Below are positions 3,366 through 18,602 of a DNA stretch of 64,000 nucleotides, in pieces. Each line of letters opens with the position of its first letter. Position 1 is the first letter of the stretch. The notes beneath the pieces are model-generated. The model did no database searches, was not told where the DNA came from, and worked only from the letters and a program-made list of their open reading frames with translations. A program made the position numbers and the translations under genes. Source of the DNA: Escherichia phage vB_Eco_NicPhage. The stretch lies in sequence record OY726582. One strand, given 5' to 3'.

Positions 3366-3406
3366 TGATAGGACTACTATAACATAGTCCTACCAAGATG
3401 TAAACT
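3366..3406 (-). promoter_or_regulatory. T4-type early promoter cassette with dyad GATAGGACTA...TAGTCCTA
   Basis: GTTTAC -35, about 17 bp spacer, TATAGT -10 inside 9-bp inverted repeat. Confidence 0.55.
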
Positions 3407-3804: not shown

Positions 3805-3858
3805 GTTCTCCTCTAGTAAGTAAGGTTTACTATAACACAACCTGAGGAGAAGTAAACT
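3805..3858 (-). promoter_or_regulatory. early promoter with anti-SD element between -35 and -10
   Basis: GTTTAC-TTCTCCTC-...TTATAGT...-GAGGAGAA(SD)-ATG; inverted repeat TTCTCCTC/GAGGAGAA. Confidence 0.55.
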
Positions 3859-3865
3859 GATAGAT

Positions 3866-3897
3866 GCCAAAAAGCCCCAACCATAAGGAAGGGGCTA
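3866..3897 (-). terminator. rho-independent terminator after rI
   Basis: Minus strand hairpin AGCCCC-TTCCTTATGGTT-GGGGCT followed by TTTTTGG. Confidence 0.65.
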
Positions 3898-6994: not shown

Positions 6995-7453
6995 CTAGAT
7001 TTTAATCACTGCTTTAGAAGCTTTTCCTGGTAGTCGTTTACTGTTAATAATAGCCATTCTACATTGAAGAGTCTTCATTTTGAATGCCGGATTTTCGCGA
7101 CAAACTGTAAGTCCTAACCAAAGATTTCCGTCAGTTATTTCTAAACGGCCTGGGCGATATTCGACACCTTCGACAAAATCTTCATCAACATCTGGACGTG
7201 CCGGCATTGATAAAAATTCTGCAACTTCTTTAACATGATTTTTTACTTTATGAAATAATTCAAAAACGTAATTCTCATCTATTTCTCTCTGGATGGCACG
7301 ATCTAAGAGATGTTGAGAATACTTGATATGAAAGCCTGGTAGTCCAAGAGACTTTGCAGCATCTTTTATACTGGCATTTATTTTGCGGAACTCCGTTTCA
7401 AAGATTCGACGGAGTTTATTACGGCGGATAAAAACGTCTGAATTGATAGTCAT
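6995..7453 (-). CDS. regB: RegB site-specific endoribonuclease
   Basis: 152 aa; high similarity to T4 RegB as recalled (MTIN..VFIRRNKLRR.FE.EFR...YSQHLLDRAIQREIDE); SD GAGGAGAA. Confidence 0.85.
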   Translation of the reverse strand: MTINSDVFIRRNKLRRIFETEFRKINASIKDAAKSLGLPGFHIKYSQHLLDRAIQREIDENYVFELFHKVKNHVKEVAEFLSMPARPDVDEDFVEGVEYRPGRLEITDGNLWLGLTVCRENPAFKMKTLQCRMAIINSKRLPGKASKAVIKI

Positions 7454-7459
7454 TTTGAT

Positions 7460-7510
7460 TTCTCCTCTAGTTGACAGGTCTATAGTAACACAACTAGAGG
7501 AGAAGTAAAC
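7460..7510 (-). promoter_or_regulatory. regB early promoter with anti-SD/SD inverted repeat
   Basis: GTTTAC-TTCTCCTCTAG-(23 bp containing TACTATAGAC)-CTAGAGGAGAA-ATCAAAATG; perfect 11-bp inverted repeat. Confidence 0.6.
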
Positions 7511-7514
7511 TACT

Positions 7515-7730
7515 TTATTGATAAAATGGAGTTAAAGCCCAAGATTCTTTAGATACCATATTGGCGAAATGCCTCATCTCTTCGATTTGGCGACGACGCT
7601 GGTCAGCATAGTCTTCTTCGCCTTCTTCCTTACAATCTTCAAGGTCTTCTTCAAGATACTTTAAGTATTCACTACAAATTTTGTTGACCTTTTCTTGAAA
7701 GTCCAATAACCCAGTAATAGTAGAAGCCAT
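7515..7730 (-). CDS. hypothetical acidic protein
   Basis: 71 aa ORF, start overlaps upstream stop. Confidence 0.45.
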   Translation of the reverse strand: MASTITGLLDFQEKVNKICSEYLKYLEEDLEDCKEEGEEDYADQRRRQIEEMRHFANMVSKESWALTPFYQ

Positions 7731-10289: not shown

Positions 10290-10347
10290 AATTTCCTCCA
10301 AGTAGTTGATGAATGTATAGTATCAAAGTCCTTGGAGGAAGTAAACA

Positions 10348-18040: not shown

Positions 18041-18542
18041 ATTTATTTTTAATTTTGCAAATTTTTCCAGCTTCAATGCACGCAGCATAGATGATGCTCT
18101 GGGCAATTTTATTGCTAGTGGACCTTGCAATCACACTAAGAACAATTTCTTTTTCTTCACCACCACATCCCCAGCTATTTTGCCCATGTGTACCTTTAAC
18201 TACGGCTGAAACTTCAACAGAACGTCCACCATCAGAAGTCTTAACATCCACAACCCAATCACCGTCTTTCTCATTAACCTGTGGTTTATCCCAAGAAATA
18301 CTAATATATGATTCACCGTCAATAGAAGTCGCCGGGTTTTTCTCTACAGTAAGACCTTCGCTTTCTAACCATTCAATAGTATTTGAGCATAAATCTGTAG
18401 AACATCTCATCGGAAAGCGGCATGATTTTTCACCTTTAGATGCAGCATCATACATCTTTTCCAAAATACGCTTTTGTACATTTTTAAAAACAACGTCACG
18501 CGATTCTTCAGATTTTTTATTCAGTTCAGTATAAAGACTCAT
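18039..18542 (-). CDS. hypothetical protein
   Basis: 167 aa; SD GAGGAAAA; promoter cassette upstream. Confidence 0.5.
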   Translation of the reverse strand: MSLYTELNKKSEESRDVVFKNVQKRILEKMYDAASKGEKSCRFPMRCSTDLCSNTIEWLESEGLTVEKNPATSIDGESYISISWDKPQVNEKDGDWVVDVKTSDGGRSVEVSAVVKGTHGQNSWGCGGEEKEIVLSVIARSTSNKIAQSIIYAACIEAGKICKIKNK

Positions 18543-18561
18543 AATGTTTTCCTCATTTGTT

Positions 18562-18602
18562 TTGATAGGTCTATAGTATCATACCTCAAGGAGAAGTAAA
18601 CA
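18562..18602 (-). promoter_or_regulatory. early promoter cassette
   Basis: GTTTAC-TTCTCCTTGAGG...GATACTATAGACCTATC upstream of 18039..18542. Confidence 0.55.

Follow-up and report, generated by a model that had tools for sequence, protein, structure and literature searches.

A predicted ribosome-binding-site hairpin split by the early promoter of regB in T4-type phages

Introduction

Why should the early promoter of regB carry, between its -35 and -10 hexamers, a sequence complementary to the Shine-Dalgarno (SD) sequence of the very gene that it serves? In T4, regB is transcribed from an early promoter that is shut off at 2-3 min, and in T4 relatives RegB regulates its own synthesis by cleaving the GGAG of the regB SD (2010 review of T4 post-transcriptional control). 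Production of RegB "must be tightly regulated" according to reviews, which give transcription from the early promoter and leave abundant regB read-through RNA unmentioned. For e, soc, 49 and I-TevI, together with mobE and segB, the 2010 review describes a ribosome-binding site that long transcripts sequester and that an internal late promoter sets free; regB, denV, alc, motB.2 and nrdC.8 are absent from the known cases listed there. A preliminary description of the DNA studied here proposed that regB is subject to a comparable, promoter-position-dependent translational control. In this work, the regB leader was analysed together with the other early-promoter cassettes of the same DNA and of T4, and its conservation was followed across T4-type phages.

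Results

An anti-SD arm within the regB promoter

The analysed DNA (64,000 nucleotides of Escherichia phage vB_Eco_NicPhage, sequence record OY726582; hereafter the window) comes from an RB69-like, T4-type Mosigvirus, and the 1.4 kb surrounding the regB leader share 99.4% identity with Shigella phage JK45 and 98.5% with RB69. The regB coding sequence (6995..7453, minus strand; 152 amino acids) encodes a product 100% identical to RB69 RegB and is separated by a gap of 61 nt from the TAA stop codon (7515..7517, minus strand) of the upstream ORF, a homologue of RB69ORF117c. The gene is preceded by a promoter of the early type, GTTTAC-N17-TACTAT, with an AT-rich upstream region (caataaagta). Its -35 hexamer GTTTAC (7505..7510, minus strand) matches the T4-type early consensus and lies inside the RB69 predicted promoter Pe:61376, and its -10 hexamer TACTAT occupies positions 7482..7487 (minus strand). 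A generic sigma-70 scan misses this promoter (8/12 matches to TTGACA/TATAAT), and its identification relies on the T4-type consensus together with the promoter prediction published for RB69.

On the minus strand, the leader reads GTTTAC, TTCTCCTCTAGTTG, tgt, TACTAT, agacctgt, CAACTAGAGGAGAA, atcaaa, ATG (7453). The first of the two arms, the anti-SD TTCTCCTCTAGTTG (7491..7504, minus strand), is situated within the -35/-10 spacer and is present only in RNA initiated upstream, the -10 hexamer lies in the hairpin loop, and the 3' arm CAACTAGAGGAGAA (7460..7473, minus strand) contains the regB SD GGAG (7465-7462). The inverted repeat has a perfect core of 14 bp (7504-7491 with 7473-7460), its arms lie 17 nt apart, and a repeat search extends the arms to 19 nt at 89% complementarity (7455-7473 and 7491-7509). 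The order given in the preliminary description (-35, arm, -10, SD, ATG) is exactly that of the minus strand, i.e. GTTTAC, TTCTCCTCTAG, ttgtgt, TACTAT, agacctgtcaa, CTAGAGGAGAA, atcaaa, ATG (7453-7451); the stem of 11 bp that it reported is present, but its length was understated, as perfect complementarity extends over 14 bp.

From the usual spacing of 7 nt after the -10 hexamer, transcription is predicted to start at about 7475, i.e. between the arms and 2 nt ahead of the 3' arm. Since the predicted start lies there, RNA initiated at this promoter should lack the anti-SD arm, in agreement with the earlier proposal. When folded, a 90-nt RNA containing both arms reaches -23.2 kcal/mol (z = -3.77; 1 of 200 shuffled sequences was equally good), and the whole SD is paired in both the MFE and the centroid structures. 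A 40-nt RNA beginning at the predicted start reaches -2.5 kcal/mol, with the SD free.

Anti-SD arms at the denV and mobD.2a-like promoters

A promoter scan of the window revealed an anti-SD arm upstream of denV, a site absent from the preliminary description. The denV promoter (minus strand; -35 GTTTAC at 10346-10341, -10 TACTAT at 10322-10317; RB69 Pe:64934) carries the 5' arm TTCCTCCAAG in its spacer (10331..10340), and the 3' arm CTTGGAGGAA (10293..10302), containing the SD, precedes the ATG (10289-10287). The denV hairpin folds with -22.0 kcal/mol (z = -2.9), and it constitutes a third case, stronger than that of the mobD.2a-like gene described below. The promoters of all three genes coincide with independently predicted RB69 early promoters (Pe:61376, Pe:58138 and Pe:64934 for regB, the mobD.2a-like gene and denV, respectively).

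The site at 3805..3858, which had been presented as a second example of the regB layout, does have this layout but proved to be a weak copy. The promoter of the mobD.2a-like gene (minus strand; -35 GTTTAC at 3857-3852, -10 TATAGT at 3834-3829; RB69 Pe:58138) contains the 5' arm TTCTCCTC (3844..3851), and the 3' arm GAGGAGAA (3806..3813), corresponding to the SD, is followed by the ATG (3801-3799). The arms form only 8 bp and are 30 nt apart, and the 92-nt fold has a z-score of -0.44. An intrinsic terminator following rI (3866..3894, minus strand; GCCCC..GGGGC and then a T run) is located immediately upstream of the 3857 promoter, and in RB69 a terminator was predicted between rI and mobD.2a with TransTerm. 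As the mobD.2a-like site stands directly behind this terminator, little read-through RNA should reach the 3805-3858 hairpin. In three close relatives the arms are invariant and the loop varies, and the site therefore carries no covariation information. In the same promoter, the -35 sequence GTTTACT (3851-3857) is complementary to AGTAAAC after the -10 (3825-3831), which would allow an alternative helix of 7 bp with a 19-nt loop.

Predicted effect on translation and supply of read-through RNA

The free energy required to make the region from the SD to the AUG single-stranded (opening cost) was computed for read-through and promoter-proximal RNA. For regB of the window it amounts to 17.7 kcal/mol in the former vs. 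4.4 kcal/mol in the latter, for denV to 12.0 vs. 1.6 kcal/mol, and for the mobD.2a-like gene to 11.7 vs. 5.6 kcal/mol. The values for T4 regB are 17.9 and 4.3 kcal/mol, and those for T4 e (lysozyme), an experimentally validated benchmark computed identically, are 15.2 and 4.9 kcal/mol. The e hairpin lowers lysozyme synthesis on early transcripts 100-fold (2010 review). Because their opening costs are comparable to that of T4 e, the hairpins of regB and denV are predicted to fall within the translation-silencing range.

Read-through into regB is to be expected, since there is no terminator between the stop codon of the upstream ORF and the 5' arm. Between the denV promoter and regB, the window contains no terminator-like site except one weak 5-bp match, and in T4 no minus-strand terminator-like site was found from ipIII to regB. 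The MotA-dependent middle promoters Pvs.7 (64382) and PipIII (66724) of T4 are located upstream of regB and denV, and T4 has an established pathway for extending its early transcripts. By standard ribosome footprint dimensions, the edge of a terminating ribosome lies about 10 nt past the stop codon. The stop codon of the upstream ORF ends 10 nt before the 5' arm and thus before the first base pair, so that ribosomes terminating there are unlikely to open the hairpin.

The regB SD is itself a RegB site. RegB is blocked by RNA structure, and the leaders of regB, motB.2 and nrdC.8 are cut in vivo (Durand, 2006), so at least some transcripts of these three genes have an open SD. The same sensitivity to structure suggests a role of the hairpin in RNA processing or stability, in which it would shield GGAG from RegB, or protect the upstream cistron's 3' end against exonucleases, and keep long transcripts intact; 16 structured GGAG sites of T4 are indeed resistant to RegB (Durand, 2006). 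However, the SD of T4 denV is RegB-resistant for sequence reasons (Durand, 2006) and nevertheless has the hairpin, and lineage L033 retains the regB helix with a GAGGA SD lacking GGAG. This explanation seems improbable, and since shielding is compatible with translational masking, it would be an added consequence more than a rival.

Conservation of the pairing at regB and denV

Regions upstream of regB were compared in named phages of six other genera and in 42 IMG/VR contigs. The hairpin layout recurs in T4, Mosigvirus, Kanagawavirus, Gelderlandvirus, Dhakavirus and further lineages, and the sequences of the arms differ among them. The T4 arms are TTTTCCTCTTGACTG and CAGTTAAGAGGAGAA, within a full helix (UUUUCCUCUUGACUG with CAGUUAAGAGGAGAA) of 15 bp including two G.U pairs. 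The corresponding pairs are ATCTCCTTTTAG and CTAAAAGGAGAT in Kanagawavirus, TTTCTCCTCTTTATG and CATAAAGAGGAGAAA in Gelderlandvirus, ATCTCCTGTAG and CTACAGGAGAT in Dhakavirus, TCTCCTGTAAG and CTTACAGGAGA in lineage L038, and CTCCTCTTG and CAAGAGGAG in L039. L033 (ATCCTCATTTG and CAAATGAGGAT) differs in the SD core itself, which reads GAGGA, and its anti-SD has followed this change.

A MAFFT alignment of the whole region from the -35 to the ATG put the arms out of register, and mini-hairpins were used for the pair counts instead, with no anchors to set their register other than the spacer's first CC and the leader's last GG. The regB count included all 19 distinct sequences with CC near the spacer start, also the helix-less ones. 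Both sides had changed in 10 of 15 pairs; there were 42 double-change cells, compared with 18.6 +/- 3.3 after shuffling (none of 500 shuffles reached 42), and the covariation score was 0.286 vs. 0.112 for shuffled sequences, falling to 0.125 or less when partners were slid by 1-3 columns. For denV (17 distinct upstream regions), 41 double-change cells were counted vs. 15.6 +/- 3.2 (0/500 shuffles), with a covariation score of 0.356 vs. 0.127. As compensatory changes exceed those of the shuffles at both loci, the sequence comparison indicates that SD/anti-SD pairing is maintained independently at two unrelated genes, regB and denV, whose synteny is conserved across genera.

Compensatory change could also arise at the level of DNA or without adaptation, the repeat being a cruciform, a protein-binding site for early-promoter shut-off, a recombination hotspot, or a quasipalindrome shaped by templated mutation with no selection on RNA. 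The counts of G.U vs. A.C combinations inside the helices (5:2 at regB and 0:2 at denV, the cases not being independent) do not single out the sense RNA strand, which leaves room for such an origin, as does the still unexplained shut-off of early promoters. In T4, imperfect palindromes are reported to be corrected by templating (Ripley's rII work). On the other side, the full T4 regB helix needs its two G.U pairs, which are A.C mismatches on the other strand, and templated mutation does not explain why the 3' arm coincides with the SD at two unrelated genes and in at least five further T4 cassettes. A sequence-specific protein operator was rejected, because the arm sequences vary among promoters and lineages while the pairing is kept. 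Taken as a whole, we regard the DNA-level and non-adaptive explanations as highly improbable.

The regB helix is absent or incomplete in Gaprivervirus and in lineages L043/44 and L041, and in Krischvirus regB has no promoter of its own. In Jiaodavirus and Karamvirus the anti-SD pairing of regB is only 5-7 bp long and lies outside a GC-rich hairpin enclosing the -10. These leaders (Jiaodavirus L007, L046 and L047; Karamvirus-like L020-L026) are nested, with an outer anti-SD helix, e.g. UUUCCUU/AAGGAGA, around an inner hairpin of the type GGGCCAT..ATGGCCC or AGGGCTAT..ATAGCCCT. In the Aeromonas phages AS-gz and avDM1 (L055 and L056), a strong intrinsic terminator is followed by a regB promoter without an anti-SD arm (100 nt upstream). 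The layout of these two related phages fits the idea that the anti-SD arm may be needed only where read-through occurs. At denV of four IMG/VR contigs (L067, L075, L076 and L077), the anti-SD GTC(C/T)TCC, seen in the stretch about 35-1 nt before the ATG, is placed right after the -10 (about -6 to +1) and not in the spacer; this relocated arm pairs with GGAGGAC at the SD and remains upstream of the predicted start.

Hairpins in other early-promoter cassettes

The T4 genome and the window were scanned for GTTTAC-N16-18-TAnnnT followed by an SD and ATG, which yielded 33 and 15 cassettes, respectively. Expected numbers were obtained by pairing each spacer with the leaders of other cassettes. Duplexes of the spacer with its own leader of -15 kcal/mol or lower were found in 12 of the 33 T4 cassettes vs. 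0.85 expected (0 of 5000 permutations) and in 6 of the 15 cassettes of the window vs. 1.57 expected (p = 0.0004). With the SD region only, 6 T4 cassettes passed this threshold vs. 0.43 expected (0 of 5000 permutations).

Two types of hairpin were distinguished. Type A hairpins have the SD as their 3' arm and are represented in T4 by regB, denV, alc, alt.-3, nrdC.8, motB.2 and ndd.4, and in the window by regB, denV and the mobD.2a-like gene. Their 3' arm takes in the complete SD in every case, leaving 2-7 nt to the ATG. Type B hairpins, whose 3' arm consists of the first transcribed bases and whose SD is free, occur at dmd, mobD.2, ipI, ipII and 30.7 of T4 and in six cassettes of the window, five of them with ATAGGACTA..TAGTCCTAT. 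About half of the strong promoter-embedded hairpins of T4 and the window thus leave the SD free, and SD masking cannot therefore be the function of the whole hairpin class. Hairpins were found behind upstream terminators in 1-2 of 8 cases vs. 16 of 40 elsewhere, which is a trend only.

Several single cassettes deserve mention. The minus-strand cassettes at 3405, 13372, 14936, 21712 and 22043 of the window are near-identical, and in them ATAGGACTA-tgttatag-TAGTCCTAT encloses the -10 and leaves the SD unpaired. An early promoter at 18542-18601 (minus strand) shows the same GTTTACTTCTCCTT start and the SD TGAGGAA, with a pairing of only -7.4 kcal/mol, and appears to be a degenerate version of the anti-SD cassette. 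In T4 ndd.4 (166749-166807), some 13 nt separate the annotated start codon (166764) from the predicted start site, and this codon lacks an SD of its own and falls within ACTATGGAGGAACAG, the arm that carries the SD; the real start looks to be the in-frame ATG at 166749, preceded by the SD GGAGG.

Early cassettes of this general architecture, termed PeSLs, have been described in RB49/phi1, PST/T4 and nt-1/KVP40 (Arbiol, 2010, PMC2839356; Comeau, 2014, PMC4122927), a published class to which the preliminary description had not recognized that its hairpins belong. As far as the accessible text of these papers goes, a PeSL is defined as an early promoter whose stem-loop either sits in the -35/-10 spacer or covers the -10, with an SD and ATG at the 3' end; it shares with the cassettes studied here the AT-rich upstream region and the occurrence in many copies per genome. 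The same text assigns the stem-loops a role in termination or attenuation and in recombination, reports that transcription of a reporter was terminated by one from RB49, extends the class to PST/T4 and does not discuss SD pairing. The regB hairpin might then be a generic PeSL, which would attenuate or terminate transcription by polymerases that come in from upstream and offer a patch of homology for cassette shuffling; its overlap with the SD would be incidental, a purine-rich SD being a convenient 3' arm. The equal abundance of SD-free hairpins agrees with this explanation, and the identical 14-nt GTTTACTTCTCCTC and the same SD block ACTAGAGGAGAA that the 3857 and 7510 cassettes have in common suggest cassette copying.

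Other features of the regB and denV hairpins speak against it. The sequence behind the 3' arm (ATCAAAATG) contains no U-tract, a terminator would lose strength with loops of 17-30 nt, and the helices are AT-rich, unlike the tested G(n)/C(n) stems. An intrinsic (Rho-independent) terminator was rejected on account of these loops, of the tail AUCAAAAUG without a U-tract and of a terminator scan that was negative at the regB, denV and mobD.2a-like sites. Moreover, compensatory change at the syntenic regB and denV genes over many genera points to orthologous maintenance and not to shuffling, and the invariable coverage of the whole SD by the 3' arm is hard to reconcile with an incidental overlap. 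In contrast to the PeSLs described in the accessible text, the regB/denV subclass has the SD itself as its 3' arm and a long loop, and its helix is conserved by compensatory change at orthologous core-region genes, whereas PeSLs are placed around ORFans. A generic PeSL function of the regB hairpin is therefore considered unlikely.

Discussion

The evidence is best accommodated by a hairpin that conceals the ribosome-binding site and is interrupted by the early promoter of the same gene, which would limit translation of regB to its own early transcripts; we regard this as the probable function of the element. A pyrimidine-rich anti-SD just after the -35 would serve as the 5' arm and the SD region as the 3' arm, with the -10 and the start site in the loop. 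Polymerases coming from upstream early or middle promoters would copy both arms, and the resulting helix of 10-15 bp would bury the SD and, in regB, also the GGAG cut by RegB itself. The local promoter would give a leader of about 25 nt with the 3' arm alone, leaving the SD open for translation and, in the case of regB, for RegB autoregulation too. RegB, DenV and several other early proteins would thus be made only from their own immediate-early transcripts, and their synthesis would stop at early-promoter shut-off (2-3 min) despite ongoing read-through and middle transcription across the genes.

Three features speak for SD masking and against a generic hairpin. Loops of 17-30 nt are ill-suited unless the SD has to serve as the 3' arm; this arm invariably includes the entire SD, with 2-7 nt left to the ATG; and the relocated denV anti-SD arm (-10 to +1) stays upstream of the start. 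SD masking is weakened by the type B hairpins, which need another explanation, by the G.U vs. A.C counts, which do not mark the sense RNA as the selected strand, and by the negative association between hairpins and upstream terminators, which is a trend only. The translational control originally proposed for regB is consistent with the geometry of the leader, its conservation and its predicted energetics, which match or exceed those of T4 e; the differential translation itself we infer from these properties.

The regB element shares with T4 e, soc, 49, I-TevI and segB and with Aeh1 mobE the sequestration of the SD and/or AUG on RNA initiated upstream and an internal promoter whose transcripts lose the 5' arm, and the predicted opening costs at regB and denV are comparable to those of T4 e. 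The parallel to e, soc and I-TevI drawn in the preliminary description is justified for this SD-masking layout and for the promoter lying between the arms, but the promoter is early and not late. Unlike e, soc, 49 and I-TevI, which are served by a late promoter (TATAAATA, gp55), the regB-type element has a sigma-70 early promoter with the 5' arm in its -35/-10 spacer; because its internal promoter is early, it should be viewed as a variant, not a member, of the e/soc/I-TevI type. Hairpins of the e type delay translation until late infection, whereas the logic of the regB type would be inverted, with expression in the first minutes only and insulation from read-through and middle transcripts. 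RegB autoregulation acts on the same GGAG of the regB SD through cleavage by a protein in trans, in distinction to the RNA structure acting in cis, and the hairpin should also decide which regB transcripts RegB can reach.

In the literature searched, no prior report of an anti-SD within early promoters of T4 came to light, although one may exist in older papers; Nolan (2006) predicted the RB69 promoters and did not mention stems. An SD-masking hairpin combined with an early promoter thus appears to be a mechanism familiar in principle that has been present, unnoticed, in T4 itself at regB.

A broader idea is that T4-type early cassettes (PeSLs) in general are self-insulating modules, each bringing a mobile gene whose promoter spacer encodes an anti-SD or leader-pairing arm; this arm would limit translation to the cassette's own promoter, and untranslated read-through RNA would become exposed to Rho. 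This generalization we find doubtful and offer as speculation. If correct, it would explain the terminator-like behaviour of PeSLs without U-tracts, part of the distinction between immediate-early and delayed-early expression, including its chloramphenicol sensitivity, and the confinement of RegB synthesis to the first 2-3 minutes.

If the proposed function of the regB hairpin is correct, RegB, the nuclease responsible for ending the T4 early phase, would be subject to a further level of control in cis, and there would be a concrete, testable reason why the synthesis of several early proteins ceases despite continued transcription of their genes from upstream. The layout is present in T4 itself, which makes experiments straightforward. 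For synthetic phages and operons it would supply a design rule, an anti-SD in the promoter spacer making expression dependent on promoter identity. Part of the PeSL family would then act as translational insulators, which bears on how horizontally acquired genes may be plugged into densely transcribed phage genomes without inheriting the expression of their neighbours.
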